A stretch of 64,000 nucleotides of DNA, taken from Octopus vulgaris (taxonomy: Eukaryota). Below, one piece after another: positions 13,842 to 58,750 of this stretch. The DNA lies in the NCBI GenBank assembly GCA_951406725.2, contig OX597841.1:6262001-6326000 (forward strand). The letters run 5' to 3'. Within the stretch, counting starts at the first letter, position 1; the number at the start of each line of letters is the position of its first letter. A program made the translations under genes and the position numbers. The notes below the pieces were generated by a model that saw nothing but the letters and a program-made list of their open reading frames with translations, ran no database searches and was not told the origin of the DNA.

Positions 13842-14325
13842 TCTGGAACATATATAAGGATATCCACACATCTTTGTCTTCCCCTCAACTTTGTCTCCTC
13901 ATAACTTCTAGAAACATTTGTAGATAAAATTATGCGATGTGTGTGTGTGTGTGTGCATTCACCAAAAAAAAAATTTTTTTTTTTCACATTACATCTCGAT
14001 ATAATTATAATCCACGTCATCTGGAAGATATTTGTAGGAAATTTCATTAAAAAAAAACAATCCACTTTTCTCGAAGTTACGAGGAAACAAATTCAGGGGA
14101 GATGCATACATGTTTAGATAGGTAGTATATTGAGGTAGTAGGTATTTAAAAATGGGGTACTTGTATATAACCATAGGCACGTCAGAGATTATAATGAACT
14201 TTAAATATATATATAAAAACAGACTTCTCAAAATTGAATAGCCTGCCCCCTGTCACTATCTGGTCCTTCCAACTTCTAGTTTTTTTTCATTTCAGATTAC
14301 AGTATATTGTTTATAGCAACTGGTC

Positions 14326-14784
14326 ATGCCACGAACACCAGATGCGAAGGAGCTGTCAGATTTTCAAAGAGGACGTATTGTGGGTCAGTCTGATAGTGGA
14401 CGTAGCCAGCGTAAGATCGCGCAAAACCTTGGAATTCCTCTTGCCACAGTCAACAGAGTGATTGTCCAGTTCACCAGCGAAGGAAAGGAGTCAACCGCCT
14501 CCCGCTCAGGTCGACCTGGGCCCTCTGATAAGTGTCTTCAGACTGTTAAACAGATTGTTGAAAGTAACCCCCATTGCAAGGCAGCTGATGTTGCAGAACA
14601 ACTTCAAAAGAGTCGGAGTACCTCTGTGAGGTATCTTCATCAACTTGGTTACTACGGTAAAGTAGCCAGAAGGAAACCTTCTTTGACCCACAGATATCCA
14701 AAGGATTGGACAAATAAAATGGCAGAGAAAGCCAAATGGGTTAAAACATTAAAACCTGCAGAAGAAATGTCAACTACATCCTAA
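14326..14784 (+). CDS. Tc1/mariner transposase-derived paired-like DNA-binding protein (no DDE domain), copy 1
   Basis: [13 protein letters not shown]...[20 protein letters not shown] (HTH), RSGRP, second HTH, ARRKP; upstream acceptor TTTTTTTCATTTCAG. Confidence 0.75.
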
Positions 14785-20040: not shown

Positions 20041-20374
20041 ATATATATATATATATATATATAACACATACGAGGGGCTGCTGGAAAGTTCCTGGCTTTA
20101 AGGGGTATCATGAAGGGCCCGGTTGGGGCCCTAATTTTCCAAGTTCCTTTACAGTGCTTAGAAAAACTGAAGGACCTCTGCAGTGTGTGTGAATCTGAGA
20201 AGAATGTTGAACGAAATCGTTATTAACTAATCTACCTGTATTTTCTCTTTAGCACACCCCCATATTTAAACAGACTTCTCAAAAGTGAATAGCCTGCCCC
20301 CTGTCACTACCTGGTCCTTCCAACTTCTATTTTTTTCATTTCAGATTACAGTATATTGTTTATAGCAACTGGTC

Positions 20375-20833
20375 ATGCCACGAACACCAGATGCGAAAGA
20401 GCTGTCAGATTTTCAAAGAGGACGTATTGTGGGTCAGTCTGATAGTGGACGTAGCCAGCGTAAGATTGCACAAAACCTTGGAATTCCTCTTGCCACAGTC
20501 AACAGAGTGATTGTCCAGTTCACCAGCGAAGGAAAGGAGTCAACCGCCTCCCGCTCAGGTCGACCTGGGCCCTCTGATAAGTGTCTTCAGACTGTTAAAA
20601 AAATTGTTGAAAGTAACCCCCATTGCAAGGCAGCTGATGTTGCAGAACAACTTCAAAAGAGTCGGAGAACTTCTGTGAGGTATCTTCATCAACTTGGTTA
20701 CTACGGTAAAGTAGCCAGAAGGAAACCTTCTTTGACCCACAGATATCCAAAGGATTGGACAAATAAAATGGTAGAGAAAGCCAAATGGGTTAAAACATTA
20801 AAACCTGCAGAAGAAATGTCAACTACATCCTAA
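20375..20833 (+). CDS. Tc1-derived paired-like DNA-binding protein, copy 2
   Basis: 149/152 aa identical to 14326..14784; same acceptor, start and stop. Confidence 0.75.
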
Positions 20834-24764: not shown

Positions 24765-25598
24765 TTAATTCCTCGGTTCAAACTTTAGTCTTTTGAGCAA
24801 TGTTGACATAATCTGAGGCATTTGTTTACAGCTATCGTATTCCAGATTATCCAACTTTCTTAATTCCAAAGAGCCAACACGTTTACAGACAGCAGTTAAC
24901 AGTTTCATGATTTCATATTCAGTGCCATATTTCACCAAAACTTTACTTAAAGTTTGCATAAACCACGAACCCTTACGTTTATGAATGACTGACGGATATT
25001 TATCAGACGACGAATGGAAAACCAACATATCTGCCATGATTGGAATTTTCGGTGGCTTTCTTTCAGATTCTTCTTCCTCGGCATCTTTTCTTTCGACTCC
25101 ATCATCAATCTTGCTTCCACGACATGCTTCAATAAAGATTAATTTAGGTATTCCTGTCAGAGATGGACAGCGATCGGGTCTCAGGCAAGAAAGCAATTCG
25201 TCCAGCTCAACTTCACCCTCGTATCCACGTATAATATCGTTTCCTTTACCATGGCTCAGAATCGCACAAACAAAGCAATCAATATTAATTTTAGGATCGA
25301 TTTGGCCCAAATCTTCTAAAGTCCCGAGCATTTCTTTGGCTGTAAAATCTGTAAATACATTGATATCATCTTCATGAAATCCAAGATTTTCTAAAGCCTT
25401 TTTAAAATGTTTTGTGTCTTTCGATGAGCCGTGACGAGTTTCAAGTCTTGGGTCACTGAAATTTTTCACGTTGAAAATGTAGGCAACACCTCGCTTTTCA
25501 TGTGTCATGTCATATTTTTCGAAACATTTCATTAAATCTTCCTCGGTTGGTAAATCGAACTGGGCGCATGTACTACCATTTACATTTACAGTATCCAT
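24765..25598 (-). CDS. Caspase (peptidase C14A), short prodomain, intronless; SHG and EACRG (caspase A)
   Basis: 277 aa: RGVAYIFN, RHGSSKD, CFVCAILSHG, PKLIFIEACRG, PIMADML, GSWFMQTL, KQMPQIMSTLLK. Confidence 0.92.
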   Translation of the reverse strand: MDTVNVNGSTCAQFDLPTEEDLMKCFEKYDMTHEKRGVAYIFNVKNFSDPRLETRHGSSKDTKHFKKALENLGFHEDDINVFTDFTAKEMLGTLEDLGQIDPKINIDCFVCAILSHGKGNDIIRGYEGEVELDELLSCLRPDRCPSLTGIPKLIFIEACRGSKIDDGVERKDAEEEESERKPPKIPIMADMLVFHSSSDKYPSVIHKRKGSWFMQTLSKVLVKYGTEYEIMKLLTAVCKRVGSLELRKLDNLEYDSCKQMPQIMSTLLKRLKFEPRN

Positions 25599-26166
25599 AG
25601 TAGTCGCGGCAGCAATGCGAAAAAGTGAATTTACTTCCTGGTCTGAAATATTATTCGTGTCACTTCACCCGACTAACGTCAGGTTATTAATGAATGCGCA
25701 TGCGTTAACAAAACCCAGCTCTCGGCTTCGAAGTGGGAACACAATTGAAAATTATTTTCGGTGAAGTGCGGCTTTTGCGTTCCGGAACCACCGCAAAATA
25801 TTCCCAGTTCCTTTAAATTGCATTTCGTCCAAAATGAAAGTGAAGTTCTTTTTCAAAAAGAACTAATTGAAACAACAGTTCGTCGAATGTAAACTGCCAT
25901 CGGCCGCAGAAATGAGGTCACACTTCACACAAGCTTCTATAAAAGGAAATGTCAATAAAAATACGGGAGCGACCACGAGGAAACGGAGGATGACCACGTG
26001 CTTTTTTATAGGACCAGAGTCGCCTTCAGATGATAACTTTTCCTTTTTTTTTCTTTCTTTCATTCTTTTTGTTGTTGCTGTTGTGAAAATGCTTATTGCC
26101 TTACTGTAATGAGTGAGCTGGATCGGAGATGATATGGTTTTAAACAACATTAATTAAAACATAATT

Positions 26167-29332: not shown

Positions 29333-30156
29333 TTACTTTCTCGGTTCAAACTTGAATTCTTTGCGCAACGTCGACATAATCTGAGGCATTTGTTTACAAC
29401 CATTGTATTCCGGATTATCCGAACTTTGGAATTCTAAAGAGGCAACATACTTAGAGACAGCGGTTAAAAGTGTCATCATTTCGTATTTAGTGCCATATTC
29501 CTTCAACATTTTACTTAAAGTTTGCATAAACCACGAACCTTTTTCATTATCCCTCATTGACGGATATTTATTTGATGACGAATGGAAAACCAACATATCT
29601 GCCATGATTGGAATTTTCGGTGGCTTTTTTTCAAATCCTAAACCGCAAGCATCTTTTTTTTCGACTCCAAGATCAGGCTTGCTTCCACGACATGCTTCAA
29701 TAAGATTAATTTAGGTATTCCTGTCAGAGATGGACAGCGATCGGGTCTCAGGCAAGAAAGCAATTCGTCTAGCTCAACTTCACCGTCGTATCCATATATG
29801 ATATCGTTTTCATCACCATGGCTCAGAATCGCACAAACAAAGCAGTCAATATTACCTTTAATATGAGAATCCTCTTCGTTAAAATCGTTCAAAACCGCGA
29901 GCATTTCTTTCGCTGTTACATCTGTACACACGTTGATATCATTCTCGTGAAATCCAAGATCTTTTAATGCGCTTTTAAAATCTTCTGCGTCTTTCGATGA
30001 GCCGAGACGAGTTGGAAGGTCCATGAAATTTTCATTGTTGAAGATGTAGGCAACACCTCGCTTTTTATGTGTCATATCATATTTATCGAAATATTTATCG
30101 TCCATAGTAGTCCCTGTGACAATGCCATCGCCTGAATCTACTTCCTGGTCTGACAT
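29333..30156 (-). pseudogene. Caspase B, EACRG type, split by a single 1-nt deletion at ~29702 (young pseudogene or sequence error)
   Basis: ORFs 29638..30156 and 29333..29605 join into PKLIFIEACRGSKPDLGVEKKDACGLGFEKKPPKIPIMAD when one base is restored (caspase A has AATAAAGATT, this copy AATAAGATT). Confidence 0.88.
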
Positions 30157-30597
30157 GTTATTTCTGTTGCATCAAGTGAAACCAGGTCAGGTTATTATCC
30201 AATGCGCATGCGTTAGCGAAATCCAACTCCTGGCTTCGAAGTGAAAAACAAAATTGGAAAAAATTTTGGGGCCAAGTGCGGCTTTTGTATTCCTGAACCC
30301 CTGCAAAATATTCCCAGTTCCTTTAAATCGCATTTCGTCCAAAATGAAAGTGAAGTTCTTTTTCAAAAAGAACTAATTGAAATAACAGTTCGTCGAATGT
30401 AAACTGCAATCGGCTGCAGAAATGAGGTCACACTTCACACAAGCTTCTATAAAAGGAAATGTCAATAAAAATACGGGAGCGGCCACGAGGAAACGGATTT
30501 TAATAACACACACACACACACACACATATATATTTTCACCCATCGCGGTGGGTTCTGGAACGTAACACCCGCAATAGTCGAAGGGTTACTGTATTAC

Positions 30598-36214: not shown

Positions 36215-37036
36215 TTATTTCTTCGCTTCAAACTTTAGTTCTTTAAGCAATGTCGACACAATCTGAGGCATCTGTTTAAGATGAGCCTTTTCCTCGTCAC
36301 TACTTTTAGTTTCTAAAGAGGCAACGTGGTTAGAGACAGCTGTTAAAAGTGTCAAGATTTCTTTTTTAGTGCCATATTTGGACAAAATTTTACTTAAACT
36401 TTGCATAAGCCACGATCCTTCAGTTTGCGTGAATGACTTATATCCATTATAACACGCATGAAAAACCAGCAGATCTGCCATAATTGGAAAATTGGTTTCA
36501 TTTACTTCTGCTTCAGGTTCATCGCTTATGTCGACTCCTTTATCTCTCTCTATTCCGCGACATGTTGCAGTAAAAATTAATTTAGGTACTCCACTTAAAG
36601 ATGGACATTTTTCGGGTGTCAGGTAAGAAAGCAATTCATGCAGTCCAACTGGAACACGGCCCTTTCCAAAAATCGTATCGTTTGTATGACCATGACTGAT
36701 AATTGCACAAACAAAGCAACCAATATTTTCGTAACGACCATCTTTGTTAAAATTCTTCAAAACTTCACTCATTTCACCGGTTGTTAAATTTGGCCAATCT
36801 ACGATACACCTTTCAGAAAATCCAAGTTTTATTAATGCCGCTTTAAAATCTTCTGTGTCTTGTGGTGAACCCTTAAGATCTTTAAGCCTTGGTTCTTCGA
36901 AACTTTCATTGTTGAAGATGTAGGCTACAAGTCGCTTGTTATTTATATCATATTTAGGGAAACATTTACTAAGATCTTCCTTAGATGGTGAATGGGGCTG
37001 ATCGCTTGTCCCAACGTTTTCATCTCCCTCTGCCAT
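36215..37036 (-). CDS. Caspase-fold protein C: SHG and ATCRG, atypical S1 pocket; intronless
   Basis: ORF with CFVCAIISHG, PKLIFTATCRG, PIMADLL, KQMPQIVSTLLK; ATG in ACCATGG context at 37036 (track start at 37045 is a TTG). Confidence 0.9.
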   Translation of the reverse strand: MAEGDENVGTSDQPHSPSKEDLSKCFPKYDINNKRLVAYIFNNESFEEPRLKDLKGSPQDTEDFKAALIKLGFSERCIVDWPNLTTGEMSEVLKNFNKDGRYENIGCFVCAIISHGHTNDTIFGKGRVPVGLHELLSYLTPEKCPSLSGVPKLIFTATCRGIERDKGVDISDEPEAEVNETNFPIMADLLVFHACYNGYKSFTQTEGSWLMQSLSKILSKYGTKKEILTLLTAVSNHVASLETKSSDEEKAHLKQMPQIVSTLLKELKFEAKK

Positions 37037-38434
37037 GGTTGTCAATGTAAGAATGTGATGAGCAGAACCTGGTTCCGTTTATTATATATTATTTCTGTCC
37101 TCTCAGATTGCTATCAATGCGCATGCGTTAACGAAATCCAACTCCTCGCTTCCAACTCAAAATATACAAATGCATCAGAAATTCTCACCGTAATAATCTG
37201 CGTTTCTATTTAAGGACCCCACACCTTAAGGGGTTACACGATAAAAACTATCTGAGGGCTGAACTCATAGGCGAGAGGGTTAAACGTTCAGATGCACGGT
37301 GTTCGATGATATCGATAGAATGGCTTTCTTCCCTTATTTGGCATTTAAAATTTCGGCAATGTTTCGTTGATGGTTTAAATCTTCGGCAATTTCCGTAAGG
37401 AAATTTTTATTTCTTTATTTTATTTACGTCATTTTGTAGGCGACATTTGCTTAGAAATCGTTGAGAGAGGGGAAAAGTGAACCACACCGAAGAGTGCGTG
37501 CGCAACCATTCACACACACACACACACACACACATACACACACACACATACACACACATACACACACACATACACACATACATACATACATACACACACA
37601 CGTACACATACAACCACTGACTTTTGTTGTGGATGAGTTGAATATTGAAACCCTCACTCGCAGAATGCATGAATGCATTTAGGTGTATGTGCGAGAAAAT
37701 GGCTGTGAATGTGTGTGTGTGTGCGTGTGTGTATGTGTGTGTGTGTGTGTGTGTATGTGTGTGTGTGCGCGCGTGCGTTTGAGTACGCGAGTGTATTTGC
37801 GGACTCGACCCTAGCGTCTGTTTCCATCCTTGCCCTCCCCACCGACTTCAAAGCAAATGTCGACTTTAAGAAAACATGAAATGATAGTAAATAAATAAAA
37901 CTATTTACGGAAATTTCAAAACAATAAGCTGCAAGAAAATAACAGGTAAATGACAAGATTGCCTGCCTTGCAGGTATAGAAAATTGCAGAAGCTTTCAGT
38001 CAAATTTAAATATTTTAAGAAATTAAGAACTGGCGTAAAAGCAAATACATTTTATTATTTCGCCGGCATTTCAAAGATTTAATCTTAATAACAAAATTTA
38101 TAAGGAGATCATCCACCAGTTTTTAAAATTAGCAGAAAAATTGGAAAAGATATTTAGAAATTGTGCTGAGATAGAATAATACAGTGAGTAAGAAAGAAAA
38201 AACAATTTCTCTTCGGCAGAGAAACTTTTACGAATGCAGCGGTATATGAAAGCGTATGAATAAAATGGCGCGCATATTAATATTGTTCATATTGTATATA
38301 AAAGAATGTTAGTCAATATTCAGAGTGAAGAGTTATTTTGAAATTTAGAATGTTCCTAGAGGGCACTGGTGTTCTTGGTAAAATTTACGTTAGGAAATAG
38401 CGTTAGTGAAACATCTCATTATATGATATTTCTG

Positions 38435-38875
38435 GGATCTTTTCTGTTTGAACGAGAGTTTTTCTAGTGGTGTCATATGAAACTGTCACCCATAATTATG
38501 ACCCTAGTATCGATCTATCACATTTCAATCGGTTTTAGGGTTACGGTTAGTTAGGGTTAGGGTTAGGGTTAGGGGTGGGGGGGGAAGGGTATCTTTTTTT
38601 GTTCACAAATGTAAATAAACCCAATCTGTTTCTTAAACGAGGGACATATTCATACGGCACAGAAAGTTTTTTTAGCTCAATAGATGTCATTGATTGGTTG
38701 AAATTGCAGAAATTTAAGAAAAAAACAACAAATATCTTACAAACTATAGAATTTTCTCAATAAAGCCAAGAGAAAAAGATGTTTTATAAACACATTCTAC
38801 CAGTATACGAAGTTTAAAAGTGTTTAGTTACGTGGAAATTATTTTAAAAAACTGCCGTTCAAACCGAAAAGATCC
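38435..38875. mobile_element. MITE of the same family as 12864..13362, opposite orientation
   Basis: GGATCTTTTC TIRs; TATTTCTG at 38427-38434 and 38876-38883. Confidence 0.85.
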
Positions 38876-39173
38876 TATTTCTGAAACCAAATCAAGTTTG
38901 GCGGTGGTCAGTTGTAACCATAAACCAATTCTTTTTTCAAAAAAATATCTGAGGTCTAAATTCATAAGTAAGAGGTTTAAACGTTCAGATGCGCAGTGTG
39001 CGACATCAATAAACAGTGTTTAGTTCAATTTTAAGAGTGAAAATTATTTTGAAATTTAGTATGTTCGTAGAAAGCTGTGATATTCTTAGTAAAATTTACG
39101 TTAGGAAATACTTTTAGTTAATTATCTAAAAAGTTACAGTATATTTATTAAACCAATATCAATTTGTAATTAT

Positions 39174-39385
39174 CGTGACGTATATTTGCCATTTCAATAT
39201 GGCTAACCCCTAAGGGTGGATGCTACTGTAGTTTTTAGCCCCAGGAGGACACACTCCTCCAGCTGGCCATAGACACACTTTCTGTGCCCTATCAGTATTT
39301 GCAAAGGGAAGTCATCCTTCCCGTCTTCAACTTATGATACACACGGACTCGAGTTTCGAGGTATTGACCTCTCGTCAGCGTGTGA
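39174..39385 (-). mobile_element. 212-bp insertion beginning at a hammerhead motif (Penelope-like or retrozyme-like fragment)
   Basis: CAATTTGTAATTAT duplicated at 39160-39173 and 39386-39399; paralogous caspase flanks lack the insert. Confidence 0.75.
39340..39384 (-). ncRNA. Minimal type I hammerhead ribozyme
   Basis: Minus strand: CACACG CTGACGA GAGGT-CAAT-ACCTC GAA AC-TCGA-GT C CGTGTG; complete core, stems I and II, palindromic stem III, GUC cleavage triplet. Confidence 0.85.
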
Positions 39386-39619
39386 CAATTTGTAATTATA
39401 TTAACAATTATTTAGTTGGAAACATTACATTTATCTATTTATTAATTTCTGCTGTGGGAATAAAATGTGAAAATAGTGTTTTTTCTTTTTGTTGTAGATG
39501 TATGAATTCATAAAATATACTTCTCTTGCAACTGTAAATGCATAAGTTCCAAAAATATATTCTTTTAGTGTAATATTCACATCGAAAGGATATTCTCACC
39601 GTAAGAAGATATTCTCACG

Positions 39620-39850
39620 GTTCAATCTTTAGCTCTTTCAGTTATGTCATCATACGCTGGGGGTTTTGTTTCCAGCGATCTATTTCCGGATTACGACATC
39701 TGATATTCTGTATATTGATATACAAAAAGAAAATTCTGGCATTTTATATTCTGTATATGATATTAATGGATGTTTTTAGTGTCACTTCTGGTTTGAATCG
39801 CAGAACCATTCCATGTTTCGAAGATCAATTTACCTTCATTCTTATACGAC
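39620..39850 (-). pseudogene. Degenerate relic of a caspase small-subunit C-terminus
   Basis: Minus-strand translation RNPEIDRWKQNPQRMMT*LKELKIEP and [10 protein letters not shown] resemble DNPEYNGCKQMPQIMSTLRKEFKFEP and DETNGSCFMET. Confidence 0.6.
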
Positions 39851-39873
39851 GTTCAACGCGGGCTAGCATGTGT

Positions 39874-39940
<67 letters not shown>

Positions 39941-40250
39941 GCGTGTGTGTGCGTATGTGTGCATATGCGTGCATGTGTGTGCGTATGTGTGCGTGTGTGT
40001 GTGTGCGTGTGTGTGTGTGTGTGTGTCTGTGTGCGTGAGCGTATGTGTGCGTATGTGTGCATGTGTGTGCGTATGTGTGCATGTGTGTGCGTATGTGTGT
40101 GTGTGTGCATGTGTGTGCGTATGTGTGTGTGTGTGCATGTGTGTGCGTGTATGTGTGCGTATGTGTGTGTGTGTGTGTGTGTTTCTACATTACTGTGCAT
40201 ATGACTGTGTTTATGTATGTGTATATGTATGTTCTTGGAGTTGTGCGTAT

Positions 40251-41156
40251 TTATGTCGGCTTGCGCGGGCGCTTCTTTGAACTCCCATCCGTTTCCTCAA
40301 GTGGACTTCTGCTTCGCTTACGTGCTTTTGATGAAGCATTTCCCCTCCTCGGTTCAAACTTTAGCTGTTTGAGCAATGTCGACATAATCTGAGGCATTTG
40401 TTTCTCCGGTTCGGGATTGCGTTTAGTTTTGAATTCTTCAGAAGCAACATAGTAAGAGACAGCGGTTAAAAGTGTCAGGAGTTCACGTTCAGTGCCAAAT
40501 TCACTCAAAGCTTTACTTAATGTTTCCATAAAACACGAACCATTCGTTTCATCCCTGAAAGACGAATATTTATTATAGGAGGAATGAAAAACCAACAGAT
40601 CAGGCATAATTGGAATATTGGATAGCGTTTCATTCACTTCTGTTTCAGGGCCATCAGTTACACAGACTCCTTTATCAATCTCTTCTCCACGACATGCTTG
40701 AACAAAAATTAATTTGGGTACTCCACTTAAAGATGGACATTTAACGGGTGTCAGGCAAGAAAGCAAAGCATACAGTCCAACATCGCGGTCGTATGCACGT
40801 AACTGATCGTTTTCCCCACCATGGCTCATAATTGCACAAACAAAGCAACCAACTGGATTACGAGTTCCAACATTTTTGAAAGCATTGAGCACTTCATCGG
40901 CTGTGTTATCTTCAAAAACTGTGACATCCCGTTCAGAAAATCCAAGTTTTATTAATGCCGCTTTAAAAGCTTTTGTATCTTTTGATGAGCCTTCACGATA
41001 TAGAGAATGTTTGTTGAAATTTTCGTGGTTGAAGATGTAGGCTACAAGTCGCTTTTTATCATCCATATCATATTTAGGGAAACATTTACTAAGATCTTCC
41101 TTAGTTGGTGAATGGGGCTGATCGCTTGTCCCAACGTTTTCACCTCCATCTGCCAT
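40251..41156 (-). CDS. Caspase D: canonical SHG/QACRG effector-like caspase with basic C-terminal extension; intronless
   Basis: YREGSSKD, CFVCAIMSHG, PKLIFVQACRG, YSSFRDETNGS; ATG in ACCATGG context at 41156. Confidence 0.93.
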   Translation of the reverse strand: MADGGENVGTSDQPHSPTKEDLSKCFPKYDMDDKKRLVAYIFNHENFNKHSLYREGSSKDTKAFKAALIKLGFSERDVTVFEDNTADEVLNAFKNVGTRNPVGCFVCAIMSHGGENDQLRAYDRDVGLYALLSCLTPVKCPSLSGVPKLIFVQACRGEEIDKGVCVTDGPETEVNETLSNIPIMPDLLVFHSSYNKYSSFRDETNGSCFMETLSKALSEFGTERELLTLLTAVSYYVASEEFKTKRNPEPEKQMPQIMSTLLKQLKFEPRRGNASSKARKRSRSPLEETDGSSKKRPRKPT

Positions 41157-41645
41157 GGTTGTCAATGTAAGAATGTGATGAGCAGAACCTGGTTCCGTTT
41201 ATTATATATTATTTCTGTCCTCTCAGATTGCTATCAATGCGCATGCGTTAACGAAATCCAACTCCTCGCTTCCAACTCAAAATATACAAATGCATCAGAA
41301 ATTCTCACCGTAATAATCTGCGTTTCTATTTAAGGACTCCACACCTTAAGGGGTTACACGAAAAAATATCTGAGGGCTGAACTCATAGGCGAGAGGGTTA
41401 AACGTTCAGATGCACGGTGTTCGATGATATTGATAGAATGTCTTTCTTCCCTTATTTGGCATTTAAAATTTCGGCAATGTTTCGTTGATGGTTTAAATCT
41501 TCGGCAATTTCCGTAAGGAAATTTTTATTTCTTTATTTTATTTACGTCATTTTGTAGGCGACATTTGCTTGGAAATCGTTGAGGGAGGGGAAAAGTGAAC
41601 CACACCGAAGAGTGCGTGCGCAACCATTCACACACACACACGCAG

Positions 41646-41699
<54 letters not shown>

Positions 41700-42099
41700 A
41701 TACGTACACACACATACACACACACGTACACATACAACCACTGACTTTTGTTGTGGATGAGTTGAATATTGAAACCCTCGCTCGCAGAATGCATGAATGT
41801 ATTTAGGTGTATATGCGAGAAAATGGCTGTGAATGTGTGTGTATGTGTGTGTGTGTGTGTGTGTATGTGTGTGTGTGTGTGTGTGAATACAAATACATAA
41901 AACAGAACACGCTTGGGCACATGCATAATGTTACACACACACATACACACACACACACACTTACACACACACACACACACACACACACTTACACACACAC
42001 TTACACACACACACACATAGACACGCCCGCGGGCAAAATATTTTTGCATTTTTACTCGTCAATGGCCGGAATTTTGAGCTTCAAAATACGGTGCCATCA

Positions 42100-43150
42100 A
42101 TTGCGCCGCCGGGACCTCTCCTTTCAGGGTCCTGAGGGAGATTCCAGAGTTCTACACATCTATCTCCAGCTCATCCCCCTGGCCACCACGGCTTCACCTG
42201 CCCTGATGCCTTTTACCATAAAACAAAATCTGCCTTACGTAAACTTTCACTCTTCCTACTGCAAACATGTCATGCCCAGCCGAGACGCAATAAGGTGAAG
42301 AGGGCCTTCATACTAACCGCGACAGTGTAGCGCAGGGCCTCCACATTAGGGCTCAGGTCAGGGCTTTGATATGTCGGTGATCAAGAGCAGCGCATTCCGT
42401 TGAATAGTTGAGGCAAGTGAGCACTACACCATTTTACAATTTCGTTTGCATTTTGTGGTCAGTGCCAAGGAATCTCCGGAGATGCTTCTCAAAGGAGGCA
42501 AAAGCCTTTCTGGCAGACTGTATTCACCACTTAACTTCCAAGTCAGAAATGTTAATACAAGTCAAAGCACTGTCCAGGGATAAAGCCCTCATGTGTACTT
42601 CAAAGGCTCCCCGTCTACTGTCAATGGCTCTGGAGCCCTCGATATAATATGGCAACTTGGTGGAATCTGGTAGAACGCTGAATTGTCTGCCGAGGGCAAA
42701 ACCCTGACACGCATTTCCCTGATTTTGGTGTAAGTTCGAAGTCGATCCTGGCTGAAGGGCTTCCCATCTATTCTAGTACGGTTTAAATCGCCCTTTTGCT
42801 AGTTGACCATCATGGTGCAAGCACATCTGGACGCAAACATACAAGAAAGCTTGGATAACACGCACCACTGCTTCTCACCGTGGTTGACTGCAAACGATTC
42901 CCTAAATGTCCGCCAACCAAGGCGAATCCTTCCGTCCCCGCGATGTCAACAACCTTCTCCAGCACTTACTAAAGTATTTCTCCCATAACTGTGTCTGTGT
43001 GAAGATTGTGTCCATCGTTCAACTCCCTCACCTGGTGCCACATTGATTCTCTGGTAAGACCTGCTCTGAGATGTCTTTTCAGCCGGTTGAGAATGATCTT
43101 CGTCAACAGCACGCCAGTAATGGCCTCATCTCCATGCAATCATCTCAAAT
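42100..43150 (-). mobile_element. Decayed RTE-clade LINE reverse-transcriptase fragment
   Basis: Minus-strand translation TRIDGKPFSQDRLRTYTKIREMRVRVLPSAD and IQSARKAFASFEK...QTKL*NGVVLTCLNYSTEC; boundaries approximate. Confidence 0.6.
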
Positions 43151-43179
43151 CCCCGCTCAATCTCAATTTTCGCTTTTAT

Positions 43180-43470
43180 CTAATTTTTATTCGTGTCCCA
43201 TACGGGTCCACAAGATTTCTACATACACCACTCCGTGGGTTTATAAAGGTACGAGAGTATTTCACAATGGCGTCAATAAAGACAAGTGTTTGGAAATTGT
43301 GGTAACTGGCTCACTCGTCTGTAAATATATTGGACCCCAGTTCTACACTTTCCATTACGAACGCCTCGGCTGTGTCCAGCATCCAGTCTGGAACCTGTTG
43401 CAGCCTTCCTATCTTCTCAGAGCTCTCGTGTAAATCAACTCCCCGGAAAACACTGATAAACAGCACTAAA
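43180..43470 (-). mobile_element. Decayed Merlin/IS1595(ISXO2)-type DDE transposase fragment (related copies ~47900-48096 + and ~59444-59640 -)
   Basis: Translation VFRGVD...QVPDWMLDTAEAFVMESVELGSNIFTDE*ASYHNF...VKYSRTFINPRSGVCRNLVD resembles my recollection of the Merlin core (VFGGV..VPDR..PGS.I.TD.W..Y...VNHS..FVDP.TG.HTN.IE). Confidence 0.6.
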
Positions 43471-44940
43471 TGCTTTCTAAGATGGCGTCGTCCACGGTGA
43501 TGATGCAGACGACAATGACATCATATATTGTACGTATGACATTTCAGCATTTCTTTAGTGCCACTTAGCTTTGTATTTCAAAACAGTTTCATTTTCCAAG
43601 GACAATTTACTTTCCCTGTAAAAATGACGGTCAATTGCATGATAAACGCGATCGTACATGTGTATGTGTTGTGTGTGGAAGTGTGTGTGTGTGTGTGTGT
43701 GCTTGGTTATGTGTTTGTGTGAAACCTGTTTGGTTTTCTTAAGTGGGATCGTGCTGGGATGGGTCTGGCCAGGGATTAAACTTGGAGTATTTTGCTGGGA
43801 TTAATCCAATGACTTAAAAGTAACATGTGGTTATGCCGCAGAAAAACGATTTTCCCTTCATTTAGCTGTTATTTCTAGCATGTTGAATTTTCTTTGAGGG
43901 GTCCATATTTTACATCTTCTGTTCGGGCGAAATCTACGCGGGCGCAAAGACACATGTTCAATATGTACAACATTCGGAATTTCTTAGTTTTTGTAAGAAG
44001 AAAAATGTAGGAGGAATGACATTGGATCTTTCTTTCTGAAAGTTTAAAATTGAAAAAATCTATCTTTCACATTCGAAATCTCCGTTGATTAAGCAAAAAA
44101 GTAAAATAAAAAACTGTTACCCCAAATCATAATCCTCGATAACAAAAAAATAGGAATGCCTGAGATATTTTTGTAAAATAGAGAGGGTTGAGATAGCGCC
44201 GAACAGCGCCGATATTTGAATCAAAAAAGGGTCACACGAAAATATATCTGAAGGCTGCCCTCATAGGTAAGAGGGTTAAACGGTCAGATGCACGGTGCAA
44301 AATATCCGTAAAGAGTCTTTCTTTCAGTATTTGGAATTTAAAAATTCGGCAATGTTTCGTTGAGGGTCTAAATCTTCGGTAATTTCCGTCACGAAGTTTT
44401 ATATATTTACTTTCTCGTTTCATGTCGTGTTGAAGGTGACATTTGCTTCGAAATCAGTGAGGGGGTGAAAGGTGGAATAGAATGGAGGGCGCGTGCGCAA
44501 TCGTACACAGATAGACACACGCACATACACACACACACACAAACACACACACACAGATCCTTTGAAATTTAGAATTTAACTATAAGGCACAGGTGTTCTT
44601 AATAAAGGCACAGGTGTTCTTAATAAATTTCATGCTGAGAAATACTTTTAGTTAAGTATCACGTTCATGATCATTTTAGCAATTATTTAGCTGAAAATAT
44701 TACATTTATCTATTTATCAATTTATGCTGTTGGTGTTACCTGTGGAAATAGTCATGTTATATATATGTATATATATATATGTATATATATATGTATCGAA
44801 ATCTGCGATGAGGAATCGGTTTCTGACTGAAGAACGAAGGCTTTGAATAACCCGTCTGTCTCTTATGTTCGTCCCTTCGTGTATTTCACGTTATTTATTT
44901 ATGTAAAGGTTTATTATATATATATCTATATCTATATCTA

Positions 44941-45007
<67 letters not shown>

Positions 45008-45012
45008 GTATG

Positions 45013-45106
<94 letters not shown>

Positions 45107-45253
45107 ATACATGAGGTTTTAAAATCTACTCCGTTGCATCTCTGGATGTGTGTGTTTCTAAACCATATTCTTTTCGTACAATATGCAGATGCGTCAGAAA
45201 TTCTCACCGTAAGAAGTTCCATATCTATTTAAGGGTCCCACACCAGAAATATT

Positions 45254-45752
45254 TTACTTCCTCTCTCAAAATTTTAGGTTTTTGAGCAAGGTTGATATAA
45301 TCTGAGGCATTCGCTTACAGCCATTATATTTTGAATTGGAATTCAAAAGAGGCAAGATAGTTTTAATCCGGATCTACCAGCATCGATTTCTTAATCTCAC
45401 GACCAGCTTGACTAAAGATTAATTTAATTATTCCCTATAATGATGGACAGCAATCGAGTCCCGGGCAAGAAAGCAACGCATCTAGCTTCACTTCATCGTC
45501 GTATCCATATATAACATCGTTTTCTTCCCCATGATACAGAATTGCACAAATAAAGCAATCAATAGTGATAACAGGATTATCTTCCTCAAATTCTTTCATC
45601 AAAAGACGAGGATTTAAAAGAGGACCTCAGCTTTTATACAGATGTAACAGTCGAACAAATGTTTGACTTCTGAATCTGTATAAAATCTGAGGTCATCATC
45701 TTGAAATCACGATTTTCTCAAGCCCTTTGAACATCTCCGTCTTTTGATGAAA
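45254..45752 (-). pseudogene. Truncated caspase pseudogene (left arm)
   Basis: Remnants SSKD, CFICAILYHG, LIFSQAGRE (Cys to Gly), MPQIISTLLK; stops, frameshifts and deletions. Confidence 0.85.
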
Positions 45753-48635
45753 GAATTTGAGCAAGATAATCTTGAAATCGTTTTTGATTGCTTTATTTGT
45801 GCAATTCCGCGATACACGAAGGACAGACGTAAAAGCTAATACATGGTATTATTTCGTTGTCATTTCAGAGATTATCCTCCAGAGATTATCCTCCGGAGTG
45901 AAACAAATACCCAAAGAATTGAAGAAACGTTACGCAATGATGCCCAGAAAGTACAATGCAGTGAGAAAACAAAGTAAAACAATTTCTGTTTCGCAGACAA
46001 TGTTTTACTAATCCAGCGATGTATGAGAGCACAGGAATAATATAACCTACATATTGATTTTCGTTAAATAAATATCCCCTAACATTTTAAGGTGCTGCTT
46101 CACTAAAACTATTTCCTCCCGTAAATTTTACTAAAGAACACCAGTGACTTATAGGTCCATTCTAAATTACAAAATAATCCTACATTCTGAAAATTGAACC
46201 AACATTGTTTTATATACAACTAAATATGAACAATATTAATATCTAGGCTATTTTATATATTTTTTTCAATTATTCTGCTATTCTTGTTAAATTCTTGTGG
46301 ATAATCTCCTAATAAAATTTCTCTCTTATAAATGTGAAGTCTCTGAATTGCCAATGAAATATCAAAATGTATCAGCTTTTTCGTTAGTTCTTAATTTATT
46401 TAGATATGTAAAGTGTGAATGAAAACTTCTGTAAATTTCTTTGCCTGCAGCGCAATGTTTCCATTATGGGTTCAATCTTGTCTTTATCTTGCGTCTAATT
46501 GCTCGACAATTTCCGTAAGTAGTTCGTTATGGAAATTGCCGACAACTGAAGGAAAGGCATTTTATCTTTTTCGGACACCTCGCATCTGAACGTTTAACCA
46601 TCTTACTTATGAGTTCAGCCTCCGGATATGTTTTTATGAAATCCTTTCTCTTTCAAATTTCGGCGGGTTTACCCTAACCCCAAATCCATATTCCTTTTCA
46701 TTTATTTCTTACTCTTTCCGATGTTTTAGTTATGGAAGATTACGATTTTGCCAAAAAAAGAAAAACAAAAAGAAATTTTCCAAAATAAAAATTTCTTTCC
46801 CACCCAAAAGTTTTTTTTATTTTACAATTTTTTAAAGAGGGGTTTTGTTTAAACTACGTCTACAGACACGGAGATAGAATCCGGAAGATTTATTCTTTTA
46901 GTTTCAAACTTCCAGAAAAAAGACCCTAAGTTGCTTCTCATATAATTTCCTTCTTTCCAAAAGTAGAAAACTCCTTTTATTAGACGGATTGGATGTGTTG
47001 CTTTGCGCCTGCGTAGAAGTAAAGTACGAACGTAGAAGAAATGTGGAAGCAAAATATGAATCCCTCACTGGAAATGTGGATATGGAAGAAATAAAAGCTG
47101 AAAATATTGTTTCTTCGCCTTAAATACACCTTTTTTAAAAATTCATTCGATTAATTTCGGCAAAGATCTCCAAATCCCTCCCAGGAGAATTCGACTTAAG
47201 AAAACTACGAAGATTTCATACAAACACAAACACACACGCCACACGCACACACTCATACATACACACACAGGCATACACACTCACGCACACACACAAACAC
47301 ACACACCACATGCACACACTCATATATACACACAAACACACACACCACACGCACACACTCATATATACACACACAGGCATACACACTCACGCACACACAC
47401 AAACACACACACCACACGCACACACTCATACATACACACACAGGCATACACACTCACGCACACACACAAACACACACCACACGCACACACTCATATATAC
47501 ACACACAGGCATACACACTCACGCACACACCACACACACACACTTATATATACACACACAGGCATACACACTCACGCACACACCACACGCACACACTTAT
47601 ATATACACACAGAGGAATACACACTCACTCACACACACAAACACACACACCACACGCACACACTCATACATACACACACAGGCATACACACTCACACACA
47701 CATACACACACACACAGACATTCATTCACAACACCCTTATATACGAGAGCAGTTTAACATACACTTGACCGTCATTTTACATTGAAATTGATTTGTCCTT
47801 GGAAACCGAAACTGCGTTGCGATTACAAAGTTGAAGTGGTCCCAAACACATCCTGTAATGTCATAAACCCAATGGATGATGTCAGTTCGAAGTGTTTCCT
47901 CAGTGTTATCCGGGGAATCGATTTACAGGAGAACACTCAGACGATAGAGGACATGCAACAAGTTCCGGACAGAATGGTAGAGCAAATTGTGGCTTTCATA
48001 ATGGAACGTGTGTGTTCTGGGGCCCATTATATTTACAGAGAAGTGCACCAGTTACTATATAATCTCCAAAGGCATCGCTTTATTCAGGCCACTTGAAGTA
48101 CTTTGATGGGGTTAATACAATGAATTAAAATTAAAATAATTTAAGAGAGAATTTATTTCGATATAGAATTTCAGTTTTTGCTTTCGTAGGAAATCTGTTT
48201 TTGTTTTATTTCGCAAATACTCGCGCGTACACTCACACTTAGCCGGAAGACAGACAGACAGACAGACATACACACGAACATACATGTATGTGTGTATGTA
48301 TGTGTGTGTGTATGTATGTATGCATGTATGTATGTATGTATGTATGTATGTATGTATGTATGTATGTATGTATGTATGTTTGTATGCATGTATGTATGTA
48401 TGTATGTTTGTATGTATGTATGTATGTATGTTTGTATGTATGTATGTATGTATGTCTGTATGTATGGAAGAAAAAACTATTTCCACAGGTAACACCAACA
48501 GCATAAATTGATAAATAGATAAATGTAATATTTTCAGCTAAATAATTGCTAATATGATTACAAATTGATATTGGTTTAATAAATATCCTCTAATTTTGCA
48601 AGATGCCTAACTAAACCCATTTCCTAGCATGAATT

Positions 48636-49322
48636 TTATTAAGAACACCTGTGCTTTTTTTAAAAACACCCCTGCCTTTATTAAGAACACCTGTGTCTTT
48701 ATTAAGAACACCTGTGTCTTTATTAAGAACAGATGTGCCTTTATTAAGAACAAACGTGCCTTTATTAAGAACACCTGTGTCCTTATTAAGAACACCTGTG
48801 TCTTTATTAAGAACACCTGTGTCTTTATTAAGAACAGATGTGCCTTTATTAAGAACAAACGTGCCTTTATTAAGAACACCTGTGTCCTTATTAAGAACAC
48901 CTGTGTCTTTATTAAGAACACCTGTGTCCTTATTAAGAACACCTGTGTCTTTATTAAGAACATCTGCATCTTTATTAAGAACACCTGTGCCTTTATTAAG
49001 AACACCCGTGTCTTTATAAAGAACAAATGTGCCTTTATTAAGAACACCTGTGCCTTTATTAAGAACACCTCTGCATTTATTAAGAACACCTCTGCATTTA
49101 TTAAGAACACCCGTGTCCTTATTAAGAACACCTGTGCCTTTATTAAGAACATCTGTGTCTTTATTAAGAACAAATGTGCCTTTATTAAGAACACCTGTGT
49201 CCTTATTAAGAACACCTGTGTCTTTATTAAGAACACCTGTGTCCTTATTAAGAACACCTGTGTCTTTATTAAGAACATCTGCATCTTTATTAAGAACACC
49301 TCTGCATTTATTAAGAACACCA
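48636..49322. repeat. 21-bp minisatellite, ~33 units (TTATTAAGAACACCTGTGYCT)
   Basis: Direct tandem periodicity. Confidence 0.95.
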
Positions 49323-49699
49323 GTTATATTCTAAATTTCAAAATAATTCTTCACTCTGAAACTTGAACTAACAATTAAACAAGTCCAGAAGTTAGGTTAA
49401 ATATATATACAAGTAGAAGTACCATGAATTCCCTTTCTATAAACTGGCAAACAGTTCTGTGAATGCTTCACCGGCCAACGCCGGGTATTAAGTCTAGTAT
49501 GCAACTAAATGCGTACAATATTAATATGGATACTTTCGTAAATCGCTGGATTCGTAAAACATTGTCTGCGAAAGAGAAATTGATTTATTTTTCTTTTCTC
49601 ACAGCATTGTATTATGTCAGCAGCATTCCGTAAAGTTCTTTTTTTTTTTCAGTTCTCCTGCTATTTTTTTACTCTCCTGGAAAATCTCTCAATGATATT

Positions 49700-49957
49700 T
49701 TAGTTAGTTAGTTAATTTTTTGGCTCAAAAAGCAAAAAAGCAAGGCCATGTAGGGGGACATGGAGTTATGTACAGGGTGGTGTTCATGCAAAGAGTTCAG
49801 GCCATTTCTGGTCAAGGGAGGCTTTGAACCGAGCGGTCGTCGGCATCTTCACTATCTCGTCCGGCAGCTTATTCCACGGATCCGCAACCCGGACGGAGAA
49901 AGCCCCTCTCCTTCGATTCAGATGAAATCATCGCAGATAGAGCTGTTTGTCTGTTAT
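49700..49957 (-). mobile_element. CR1-like LINE 3' end with (AACT)n tail (mirror copy ~56935-57190 +)
   Basis: Translation AFSVRVADPWNKLPDEIVKMPTTARFKASLD. Confidence 0.7.
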
Positions 49958-50369
49958 TAACACAAAGTCCCTGAAATGATGACGAAATAATAAAATGTAT
50001 CAGCTTTTATGTTAGTTTTTATGGTCTTAAAATATTTCAAGCTTGAAGAATGGCTCTCATGTATTTCCGTTCGACTGCAACGCCATCTTTCGATGACGTT
50101 TTCAATCTTGTGATTTCCGTATTGTTTTCTTGCAGCTGATTGTTCGGCAATTTCCGTAAGTAATTTCTATTCATTTTCCATCATTTCATGTCCTGTTCAA
50201 TTCGAGTTTGCTTTGATGTCGGTGAGGGAGGCAAAATGAGATATTGAGGCTAGCAATCACTACACGTATATACTCACACACACACACGATCAAACACACG
50301 TACACACGTACACACACACACGTGCACTTGTATCACACACTCGTTACGTGTATATGAAATATAATTGGT

Positions 50370-51086
<717 letters not shown>

Positions 51087-51735: not shown

Positions 51736-52497
51736 ATGGACACTGAAAGGGCAAACATTGGGACAAGCGATCAGCCCCATTCACCAACTAAGGAAGATAT
51801 TAGTAAATGTTTCGCTAAATATGATATGGAAAATAAAACACGTGTAGCTTATATAGTCGACCCTAAGTGTTCAACAAACGATGCAGCAGATTTTAGAAGG
51901 GCATTAGAACGTATTGGATTTAAATGTGAACCTATTTATAACGATTTTGAAACAATGTGCAAAGATTTGGAAAAGTTTAACGAACCTAAACTTAAAAATA
52001 AAATTGGTTGCTTTATTTGTGCAGTTATAAACCAAGATCACGAGAAAGCTGGATCTGACGTAATTGCAGTAACTTCTAAGCTGACAGCAGCCGATAAGTG
52101 TAAATCTTTAACAGGAGTTCCTAAAGCAGCCGATAAGTGTAAATCTTTAACAGGAGTTCCTAAATTAATTTTTATTGAAGCAGTTGAAATAGTTAAAAGA
52201 TTCCACGCAGTGGATGCACCTGGAACAGACAATATGCCTAAAATCCCAATAACGGCAGATCTGTTGGTTTTTCGTTCGTGGCGGAAAGAATGTCTGCCAA
52301 TCCACGGCAAACATGAAGCTTCGCCATTTATGAAAATATTAACCAAAAATTTGAATGAGTATGGCACTAAATATGAAATACTGAAGCTATTAACCATTAC
52401 TTCTGGTGAATTCCAAAGTTCGGAGAATTCGAAAAATAATGGCTCTGAAAGAAAGACTCAGATTGCGTCGACATTGCTCAAAGAACTAATGTTTTGA
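51736..52497 (+). CDS. Catalytically dead caspase homologue E (no His, no Cys), open frame
   Basis: CFICAVINQD replaces SHG; PKLIFIEAVEI replaces QACRG; rest aligns with paralogues; ATG in ACCATGG context at 51736; in-frame 39-bp duplication at 52087-52164. Confidence 0.75.
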   Translation: MDTERANIGTSDQPHSPTKEDISKCFAKYDMENKTRVAYIVDPKCSTNDAADFRRALERIGFKCEPIYNDFETMCKDLEKFNEPKLKNKIGCFICAVINQDHEKAGSDVIAVTSKLTAADKCKSLTGVPKAADKCKSLTGVPKLIFIEAVEIVKRFHAVDAPGTDNMPKIPITADLLVFRSWRKECLPIHGKHEASPFMKILTKNLNEYGTKYEILKLLTITSGEFQSSENSKNNGSERKTQIASTLLKELMF

Positions 52498-56372: not shown

Positions 56373-57564
56373 CATATATACGACAGGCTTCTTTCAGTTT
56401 CCGTCTACCAAATCCACTCACAAGGCATTGGTCGGCCCGGGGTTATAGCAGAAGACACTTGCCCATGATGCCACGAAGTGGGACTGAACCCAGAACCATG
56501 TGGTTGGTTAGCCACTCACCAATTATATTTCATATACACGTAACGAGTGTGTGATACAAGTGCACGTGTGTGTGTGTACGTGTGTACGTGTGTTTGATCG
56601 TGTGTGTGTGTGAGTATATACGTGTAGTGATTGCTAGCCTCAATATCTCATTTTGCCTCCCTCACTGACATCAAAGCAAACTCGAATTGAACAGGACATG
56701 AAATGATGGAAAATGAATAGAAATTACTTACGGAAATTGCCGAACAATCAGCTGCAAGAAAACGATACGGAAATCACAAGATTGAAAACGTCATCGAAAG
56801 ATGGCGTTGCAGTCGAACGGAAATACATGAGAAGCCATTCTTCAAGCTTGAAATATTTTAAGACCATAAAAACTAACATAAAAGCTGATACATTTTATTA
56901 TTTCGTCATCATTTCAGGGACTTTGTGTTAATAACAGACAAACAGCTCTATCTGCGACAATTTCATCTGAATCGAAGGAGAGGGGGCTTTCTCCGTCCGG
57001 GTTGCGGATCCGTGGAATAAGCTGCCGGACGAGATAGTGAAGATGCCGACGACCGCTCGGTTCAAAGCCTCCCTTGACCAGAAATGGCCTGAACTCTTTG
57101 CATAAACACCACCCTGTACATAACTTCATGTCCCCCTACATGGCCTTGCTTTTTTGCTTTTTGAGCCAAAAAATTAACTAACTAACTAAAATATCATTGA
57201 GAGATTTTCCAGGAGAGTAAAAAATAGCAGGAGAACTGAAAAAAAAAAGAACTTTACGGAATGCTGCTGACATAATACAATGCTGTGAGAAAAGAAAAAT
57301 AAATCAATTTCTCTTTCGCAGACAATGTTTTACGAATCCAGCGTTTTACGAAAGTATCCATATTAATATTGTACGCATTTAGTTGCATACTAGACTTAAT
57401 ACCCGGCGTTGGCCGGTGAAGGATTCACAGAACTGTTTGCCAGTTTATAGAAAGGGAATTCATGGTACTTCTGCTTGTATATATATTTAACCTAACTTCT
57501 GGACTTGTTTAATTGTTAGTTCAAGTTTCAGAGTGAAGAATTATTTTGAAATTTAGAATATAAC

Positions 57565-58750
57565 TGGTGTTCTTAATAAAGGCACAGTTGTTCTTAATAA
57601 AGGCACAAGTGTTCTTAATAAAGGCACAGGTGTTCTTAATAAAGGCACAGGTGTTCTTAATAAAGGCACAGGTGTTCTTAATAAAGACACAGGTGTTCTT
57701 AATAAGGACACAGGTGTTCTTAATAAAGACACAGGTGTTCTTAATAAAGGCACAAGTGTTCTTAATAAAGGCACAGGTGTTCTTAATAAAGGCACAGGTG
57801 TTCTTAATAAAGGCACAGGTGTTCTTAATAAGGACACAGGTGTTCTTAATAAGGACACAGGTGTTCTTAATAAAGACACAGGTGTTCTTAATAAAGGCAC
57901 AAGTGTTCTTAATAAAGGCACAGGTGTTCTTAATAAAGGCACAGGTGTTCTTAATAAAGGCACAGGTGTTCTTAATAAAGACACAGGTGTTCTTAATAAG
58001 GACACAGGTGTTCTTAATAAAGGCACATTTGTTCTTAATAAAGGCACATTTGTTCTTAATAAAGACACAGATGTTCTTAATAAAGGCACAGGTGTTCTTA
58101 ATAAGGGTGTTCTTAATAAAGATGCAGATGTTCTTAATAAAGACACAGGTGTTCTTAATAAGGACACAGGTGTTCTTAATAAAGACACAGGTGTTCTTAA
58201 TAAGGACACAGGTGTTCTTAATAAAGGCACATTTGTTCTTAATAAAGGCACATTTGTTCTTAATAAAGACACAGGTGTTCTTAATAAAGGCACAGGTGTT
58301 CTTAATAAGGACACAGGTGTTCTTAATAAAGGCACGTTTGTTCTTAATAAAGGCACATCTGTTCTTAATAAAGACACAGGTGTTCTTAATAAAGACACAG
58401 GTGTTCTTAATAAATGCAGAGGTGTTCTTAATAAAGGCACAGGTGTTCTTAATAAAGGCACATTTGTTCTTTATAAAGACACAGGTGTTCTTAATAAAGG
58501 CACAGGTGTTCTTAATAAAGATGCAGATGATCTTAATAAAGACACGGGTGTTCTTAATAAGGACACAGGTGTTCTTAATAAAGACACAGGTGTTCTTAAT
58601 AAGGACACAGGTGTTCTTAATAAAGGAACATTTGTTCTTAATAAAGGCACAGGTGTTCTTAATAAAGACACAGGTGTTCTTAATAAAGGCACAGGTGTTC
58701 TAATTAAGGCAGGGGTGTTTTTAATAAAGGCACAGGTATTCTTAATAAAA
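57565..58750. repeat. 21-bp minisatellite, ~56 units (mirror of 48636..49322)
   Basis: GGTGTTCTTAATAAAGGCACA tandem. Confidence 0.95.

Follow-up and report, generated by a model that had tools for sequence, protein, structure and literature searches.

A tandem-cluster effector caspase of Octopus vulgaris keeps the catalytic dyad, has replaced the three residues that bind P1 aspartate, and is a candidate non-Asp protease

Caspases-3 and -7 and insect caspase-1/drICE, which we take to be members of clan CD, family C14A, are the closest known counterparts of the gene described here. Animal caspases are defined by their specificity for aspartate. As set out in the accessible portions of two studies, the P1 aspartate is held by Arg179, Gln283, and Arg341, and catalysis relies on Cys285, His237, Gly238, and Ser339 (PMC10088814, PMC5322338). 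The accessible portion of the second study describes cleavage after glutamate as the only natural exception (PMC5322338). Single substitutions in the S1 pocket and odd motifs have already been reported in bivalve caspases (excerpts of PMC3037946 and PMC7836458). In para- and metacaspases, according to the accessible text of PMC2064784, Arg179 aligns to leucine, and an aspartate six residues further on helps bind P1 arginine or lysine. Gingipain-R anchors P1 arginine by one aspartate side chain and MALT1 does so by three acids (PMC4626109, in excerpt), and the accessible part of bioRxiv 10.1101/2021.06.07.447441 describes a bacterial caspase-like protease that cuts after leucine. A literature search with most subscription papers outside its scope retrieved no account of the gene described here, of an animal caspase with a demonstrated non-acidic P1, or of a mutant at Arg179 or Arg341 tested directly.

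We analyzed a 64,000-nucleotide stretch of the O. vulgaris genome (contig OX597841.1, positions 6,262,001 to 6,326,000; hereafter, the window), which carries the gene that we call caspase C. Its coding sequence (36215..37036, minus strand; ORF list and translation) is a single exon specifying 273 amino acids followed by TAA, with zero stops and zero frameshifts, and the protein is present letter for letter in a public protein collection. The product consists of a short N-terminal peptide (~27 amino acids), p20, linker, and p10. Peptidase_C14 is its sole Pfam domain (E 9.6e-41) and starts at about residue 28-37, which leaves the short prodomain of effector caspases. The best solved relatives in the PDB, searched with phmmer, are insect caspase-1 and caspase-7/-3. 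An AlphaFold2 model built on a 34-sequence alignment (mean pLDDT 82.3) found caspase-7/-3 as its top Foldseek matches, with E 5e-25 and TM 0.77/0.90 for caspase-7. The ESM Atlas returned generic caspase clusters only, and none of the 23 candidates inspected as shorter homologues was significant. Evidence for expression is weak: no RNA run for the region was among those listed, one 155-nt exact contig over Leu54 (depth 3.3) came from run X16, which is RNA by guess and may contain DNA, and the contigs listed for run X18 included none specific to caspase C. Neither run was counted toward expression.

Caspase C sits in a fast-evolving Octopus tandem cluster. The genome holds at least 49 caspase matches, and the clade considered here comprises the 15 open-frame genes on contigs C28, C19, and C7, with the frameshifted neighbor B, fragments, and the second match on C7 excluded. 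Eight of these genes are canonical, five have lost the dyad (L008, L012, L013, E, and L027), and two keep the dyad with an altered S1 pocket (C and A). In a tree of residues 76-269 without paracaspases, caspase C is nested in this clade and is thus an effector caspase by descent; it is sister to neighbor D plus the O. bimaculoides D orthologue (UFBoot 95), and the dead E lineage comes next. Because the divergence of C and D is older than the branching of the O. bimaculoides D orthologue, C likely predates the split from that species and would not be a new copy. By alignment and tree, its nearest paralogue is D (40251..41156, minus strand), a canonical R/H/Q/C/R caspase that is matched by the O. 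vulgaris protein P0006 up to the C-terminal tail, and E (51736..52497, plus strand), sister to C+D, has lost both the dyad and S1. The ORF list splits paralogue B (29333..30171, minus strand) over two frames just before EACRG. In the alignment, paralogue A (24765..25664, minus strand) has an intact dyad with Gln283 replaced by Glu and Arg341 by Ile (R/E/I), which makes it a second candidate for altered specificity; a protein similar to A, P0029, has Gln283 and Lys341.

Several features of the cluster and of the window were recorded alongside. The open-frame pseudo-caspases L008, L012, and L013 lie on C19 (7.04-7.13 Mb) and L027 lies on C7 (8.76 Mb), and an L027-like protein, P0146, was found in Logan contigs. 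A second cluster (C5:54.14-54.52 Mb) holds 22 caspase matches; most of the 16 that were read are canonical, with Arg341 replaced by Lys in L017 and L022 and by Glu in L028. Five of the 15 clade genes (A, E, L008, L013, and L027), together with the frameshifted B, carry Glu in place of Gln283 (CAA to GAA), and most of these copies have lost the dyad. Our guess is that Glu283 plugs the pocket by pairing with Arg179, and the GCA codon of caspase C may have passed through GAA. Dead E has an internal duplication of ~13 codons and is near the center of a large inverted duplication (~37500-50600 versus ~56300-72300, into L031; ~91-98% identity), which copies D as D2 along with the region upstream of C, not C itself; neither the inverted duplication nor the 60 kb that follow yielded a mirror copy of caspase C. 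Each arm contains one array with an apparent 21-bp unit encoding 7-residue repeats (48607-49366 and 57521-58777). Elsewhere in the window are two long plus-strand ORFs with, by eye, tandem C2H2-type zinc-finger repeats (1218-2741 and 7838-8836). Two near-identical plus-strand ORFs of 155 amino acids (14317-14784 and 20366-20833) may resemble the helix-turn-helix N-terminus of a transposase.

The phmmer alignment of caspase C to PDB 1m72 places Leu54, Ala157, and Thr203 at the Arg179, Gln283, and Arg341 positions, opposite the Arg of SRTGT, the Gln of QACQG, and the Arg of SWRN, respectively. Leu54 (CTT, 36875..36877, minus strand as for all caspase C positions below) belongs to the motif DLKGSPQD (residues 53-60, 36880-36857), and the aligned codon is CGT in 11 of the 14 other clade genes. 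Ala157 (GCA), together with Thr158 (36563..36568), turns QACRG into ATCRG within FTATCRG (155-161). Thr203 (ACG, 36428..36430) lies in YKSFTQTEGSW (199-209), where the DNA alignment shows the next codon deleted relative to D. At the DNA level, the changes read CGT to CTT, CAA to GCA, and AGG to ACG plus the lost codon. The L3 loop is one residue short, so that a MAFFT protein alignment puts the gap on the Arg341 column, whereas the DNA alignment to D (ACG versus AGG) and other protein alignments support replacement of Arg341 by Thr; under either gap placement, the aligned sequences indicate that Arg341 is gone. Misalignment hiding a conserved arginine was rejected at 179 and 283, and position 341 holds either Thr or a deletion, in a loop without Arg. 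An assembly or frame artifact was likewise rejected, as contigs of other runs show the same codons: runs X1 and X5 yield contigs with 0 differences from the window over all three S1 codons, X1 being possibly the source of the window itself, and X3, which is independent because it differs from the window elsewhere, has no listed change at these codons. Alignments and independent contigs (X3) thus bear out the starting observation of the sequence-only reading, that all three Asp-recognition residues have been replaced, and the motifs that it quoted, SHG (114-116), CRG, and an intact frame were all found in the translation of 36215-37036. Judged on alignment and model, caspase C is an effector caspase by descent and fold that lacks both the basic Arg179/Gln283/Arg341 pocket and the QACxG motif, and it should not be classed as an Asp-specific caspase.

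The catalytic apparatus aligns without change. His115 and the oxyanion-hole Gly116 (Gly238; 36689..36694), the nucleophile Cys159 (36560..36562), Ser201 (equivalent to Ser339), and GSW (207-209) are intact, and all 10 apparatus residues are kept (S114, H115, G116, C159, R160, G161, S201, G207, S208, and W209). The dyad is unchanged in every run contig covering its codons, and the divergent contigs of X3, X4, and X9 show no listed change at His115, Ala157, Thr158, Cys159, or Thr203 and no stop or coding indel. Loss of the basic pocket with the dyad spared, as originally proposed, therefore extends to retention of Gly116, Ser201, and GSW. The dimer strand QIVSTL is also retained. Asp172, aligned with the intersubunit-linker Asp of the paralogues, is kept and followed by Glu173 at P1' (36518..36523), which is Gly173 in one X9 contig; glutamate at P1' is unfavorable for caspase cleavage. 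Six residues after Leu54, at the para/metacaspase S1 Asp position, stands Asp60 (36857..36859). Caspase C keeps 62 of the 69 columns conserved in dyad-intact paralogues, similar to canonical D (63 of 72), and departs from them at M31I, R54L, L113I, Q157A, A158T, S194A, and F210L. The probability that all three S1 sites fall among 8 changes in 70, with the Arg341 column added post hoc, is 0.001, and by this count the losses are concentrated on S1 beyond chance.

The history of the locus involves exchange with its neighbors. In DNA alignments, the 5' flank and the first ~30 codons (36940..37690, minus strand) are near-identical in C, D, and D2 and mark a gene-conversion tract: between about -470 and +95, 55-60 matches are found in most 60-column windows, C and D match further up, to about -690, and beyond the tract most coding windows match at roughly 55-90%. 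The partner in this conversion was likely D or D2, the inverted copy of D. Run contigs and protein alignment show that the Leu54 segment (36818..36945) gives way to Arg-bearing sequence of the D type in the O. sinensis orthologue XP_029653344.1 (P0016), whose frame is open and which keeps Ala and Thr and has Arg at 179. Residues 30-62 of P0016, carrying Arg179, are identical to a D2-type protein at 32 of 33 positions and to C at 18 of 33, and residues 77-273, carrying Ala and Thr, match caspase C at 194 of 197. P0016 accordingly reads as a mosaic, with Arg179 on a 5' segment copied from a neighbor. Run X4 (organism B) has the three substitutions of P0016 and no contig listed over Leu54, and run X9 (organism D) has D-type, Arg-coding contigs over the Leu54 segment and no C-type contig listed there; this lack of C-type cover agrees with the mosaic being real, without being proof. 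The Leu54 segment is present in runs X1, X3, X5, and X16. Ala157 and Thr203 are shared in every record covering them, and position 179 is exchangeable. The expectation that orthologues would keep the same substitutions is thus upheld for Ala and Thr in O. sinensis and fails at 179, where Arg replaces Leu; no O. bimaculoides orthologue of caspase C was found among the protein matches.

Caspase C also contains divergent tracts, in X3 and X9 at residues 123-134 and in X9 at residues 173-204, that are mostly amino-acid-changing. Contigs of X3 and X9 have 9 differences in 170-306 nt within 36426-36669, two variants coexist in X9, and one divergent tract is common to runs labeled as different organisms. 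These tracts may reflect balanced polymorphism or a second copy, and no paralogue traces cleanly as a single donor. X3 contigs further carry G56R and L147V at otherwise conserved sites.

The pattern is very unusual, as had been supposed. Among the best 150 of 3,859 representatives, 165 domains span all sites and 148 of them, caspase C aside, have an intact dyad; 129 of the latter have no S1 change, 15 have one (in one case an alignment gap), 3 have two, and a single domain has lost all three residues. Likewise, none of the dyad-bearing domains among the 125 from 119 of 120 listed proteins, with C left out, has more than one S1 change. Arg179 is changed in 3 of the 148 dyad-intact domains, to Leu, Leu, and Ile, and Arg341 is lost in all three (Fisher p 3e-4, kinship uncorrected); dyad-dead domains have N, N, A, S, H, L, or a gap at 179. 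The three are P0207 (L/D/S), which is arthropod-type by best structure match with a drICE-like scaffold, P0165 (I/Q/A), and P0188 (L/Q/V; Ridgeia piscesae KAK2186252.1). They share with caspase C the aliphatic residue at 179, the non-Arg residue at 341, the retained dyad, and the effector-type organization, and differ from it in belonging to separate lineages by name or best structure match. P0207 also has Asp283, as in paracaspases, and thus a nearly paracaspase-like pocket. No viral contigs encoding a P0207 relative were found.

Since caspase C keeps the catalytic set and loses the Asp-binding set, canonical Asp cleavage would not be expected. The explanation that we favor, tentatively and at slightly under even chances, is that caspase C is an active protease cutting after a residue other than Asp. 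Replacement of Arg/Gln/Arg by Leu/Ala/Thr would remove two positive charges as well as bulk, and the resulting pocket would be deeper, with Asp60 as its sole fixed charge, favoring a long P1 side chain. A hydrophobic or neutral P1, as first suggested, is one version of this; because Leu179 with Asp six residues on is the paracaspase arrangement, Lys/Arg is equally plausible, and we would give about half of the reading to P1 Lys/Arg, paracaspase- or gingipain-like, and the other half to Leu/Met/Phe. What stands of that suggestion is the loss of the basic pocket; its preference for a hydrophobic or neutral P1 does not stand alone. Caspase C would be unable to cut its own Asp172 linker, and, as this Asp is kept, the simplest route to activation would be cleavage by an Asp-specific neighbor such as D, with which it shares the 5' flank. 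Caspase C may then act as a downstream protease that relays an Asp-caspase signal to a different substrate set. The retention of ten apparatus residues, the S1-focused losses, the open frame, and an omega of ~0.3 at conserved sites argue for an active enzyme, as does the clade's class of sites with omega ~3 in surface loops predicted near the active site. By analogy, so does the recurrence of Leu/Ile179 with non-Arg341 in dyad-intact domains, in parallel with para/metacaspases. A bolder version, which we regard as rather unlikely, is that caspase C has re-evolved a paracaspase-like Lys/Arg pocket and is an active non-Asp enzyme within a recurrent class that includes P0207, P0165, and P0188. 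If so, non-Asp proteases would have arisen from Asp-caspases again and again in animals, with gene conversion toggling position 179 from one octopus species to another. Bacterial effectors that modify Arg (excerpts of PMC9239266 and PMC11598138) were considered as a reason to lose Arg341; this was set aside, since nothing in the analysis tied such effectors to octopus and the other two losses would be left unexplained.

A close rival, nearly as likely, is that caspase C is a pseudo-caspase, folded and selected but unable to position a substrate, with a His and a Cys that have persisted by chance. It could dimerize with active neighbors as an activator or brake, as FLIP(L) does, or decoy pathogen caspase inhibitors; FLIP(L) (PMC7586951, in excerpt) and dipteran caspase-like decoys (as described in the accessible text of PMC3141678) are precedents. 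This possibility is nearly as likely because S1 change tracks dyad loss, dead genes retain most of the apparatus, the dyad survives by chance with P ~0.32, and Arg179 returns in the sister species. Specifically, 5 of the 15 clade genes lack the dyad yet have open frames, and all five are also S1-changed, i.e., the dyad is missing from 5 of 7 S1-altered genes and from 0 of 8 S1-intact ones (p 0.007). One of the dead genes, L008 (Cys to Ser, Gln to Glu, and Arg341 to Ile), has a conserved O. sinensis counterpart, P0011. As 9 of the 10 apparatus residues are present in dead L008 and L013 too, most of these residues are not specific to catalysis. Asp60 is no sign of re-specification, because Asp occupies this position in all 165 domains tallied, dead ones included. 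Cys159 falls in the neutral site class of the clade under the site model, and under neutrality both dyad codons would survive with P ~0.32, so that dyad survival is weak evidence, only about 3:1 for catalysis. Close relatives have now Leu, now Arg at position 179, the Leu54 segment being replaceable by Arg179 in O. sinensis and by the Arg-coding X9 contigs, and Leu/Ile may simply be a tolerated buried replacement for Arg. The kept dimer strand and the promoter region homogenized with D and D2 would fit co-expression with a partner. Further points against an active enzyme are a whole-gene omega of 0.85, G56R/L147V in X3, Glu173 at P1', and the missing O. bimaculoides orthologue. However, FLIP(L) lost both dyad residues, and caspase C kept them along with the oxyanion Gly. 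No covering contig shows a change in the dyad, and Leu/Ile179 with non-Arg341 characterizes 3 of 3 dyad-intact cases of Arg179 loss, both of which favor the active non-Asp protease.

Caspase C could instead be a slowly decaying copy, dispensable in a birth-and-death cluster, with S1 losses due to drift, which we consider improbable. Our own codon-model scripts were run on 193 codons with a fixed topology, and conversion and alignment error can bias the estimates. Over the whole gene, the clade has an omega of 0.68; on the C branch (dS ~0.23) the estimate is 0.85, a value inseparable from 1 and from the background of 0.65. This would suit decay, as would the frameshifted neighbor B, the mostly amino-acid-changing differences in X3, X4, and X9 contigs, and the failure to find an O. 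bimaculoides orthologue. Within the conserved class of 70 sites, which was drawn up leaving C and E aside, however, omega on the C branch peaks at ~0.3 (lnL -1110.6 versus -1123.3 at omega 1; 2dlnL ~25), and for dead E at the same sites it peaks at 0.5-0.7. The fold of caspase C is under purifying selection. Neutrality predicts ~7 stops, and none is seen (P ~7e-4); it would also keep all ten apparatus residues with P ~0.004 and lose all three S1 residues with P 0.07. The 62 of 69 conserved columns kept (63 of 72 in D) and the open frame in O. sinensis are similarly at odds with decay, and a long-dead pseudogene was rejected on the stop-free frame and the conserved-site omega. For the clade, M2a is favored over M1a (2dlnL 59.5, branch lengths only rescaled), with 15% of sites at omega ~3; this class includes the linker and H117, T205, and S246-H252, which are the surface-loop sites near the active site.

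Very improbable is a weak Asp/Glu enzyme relying on a neighboring basic residue (Lys55, Lys200, or Arg204/Arg56 in some alleles) or on exosite binding: Lys55 and Lys200 flank the lost residues, Q204R and G56R each occur in one contig (of X9 and X3, respectively), the O. sinensis form has Arg179, and mussel caspases with Arg341 or Gln283 replaced are described in the accessible part of PMC3037946, but Asp recognition is ascribed to exactly Arg179/Gln283/Arg341 in the accessible portions of PMC5322338 and PMC10088814, Lys200 is Met in the very X9 contig that carries Q204R, and residue 55 varies in canonical paralogues.

With its dyad intact and S1 fully replaced, caspase C tests whether the C14A scaffold accepts another P1. 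Natural controls are at hand in the canonical neighbor D, the O. sinensis Arg179 form, and paralogue A (R/E/I). Should it prove active, DEVD-type assays would overlook this non-Asp animal caspase, and protease engineering could take it as a guide; should it prove inactive, it would represent a second route to pseudo-caspases, missed by dyad-only annotation.

Set against caspases-3/-7 and caspase-1/drICE, caspase C shares the fold, short prodomain, His/Cys dyad, Gly238, Ser339, Trp348, linker Asp, and dimer strand, and differs in Leu/Ala/Thr, ATCRG, the shorter L3 loop (by one residue), and an identity of only ~30%. MALT1, metacaspases, and gingipain-R resemble it in having Leu at 179 with Asp six residues on (accessible text of PMC2064784) and no basic residue at 341. 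The Leu54/Asp60 pair of caspase C matches the first of these features, with the proviso that the Asp is universal in the caspases tallied, whereas the Asp283 and Asp/Glu341 of para- and metacaspases are Ala157 and Thr203 here; unlike MALT1 and metacaspases, caspase C nests among Octopus effector caspases. The Runella CHAT protease, which cuts bacterial gasdermin after Leu247 (as described in the accessible part of the source), is caspase-like and shows that this fold class allows a non-polar P1, but it is bacterial, belongs to another family, has demonstrated activity, and is likened to caspase C by description, not sequence. FLIP(L) and the dipteran decoys arose, as caspase C did, by duplication beside active paralogues, with the fold kept and canonical Asp cleavage not expected. 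Pseudo-caspases are recognized by loss of the catalytic His and/or Cys, both of which caspase C retains: FLIP(L) lost both dyad residues (PMC7586951, in excerpt), whereas caspase C lost S1 and kept the dyad.
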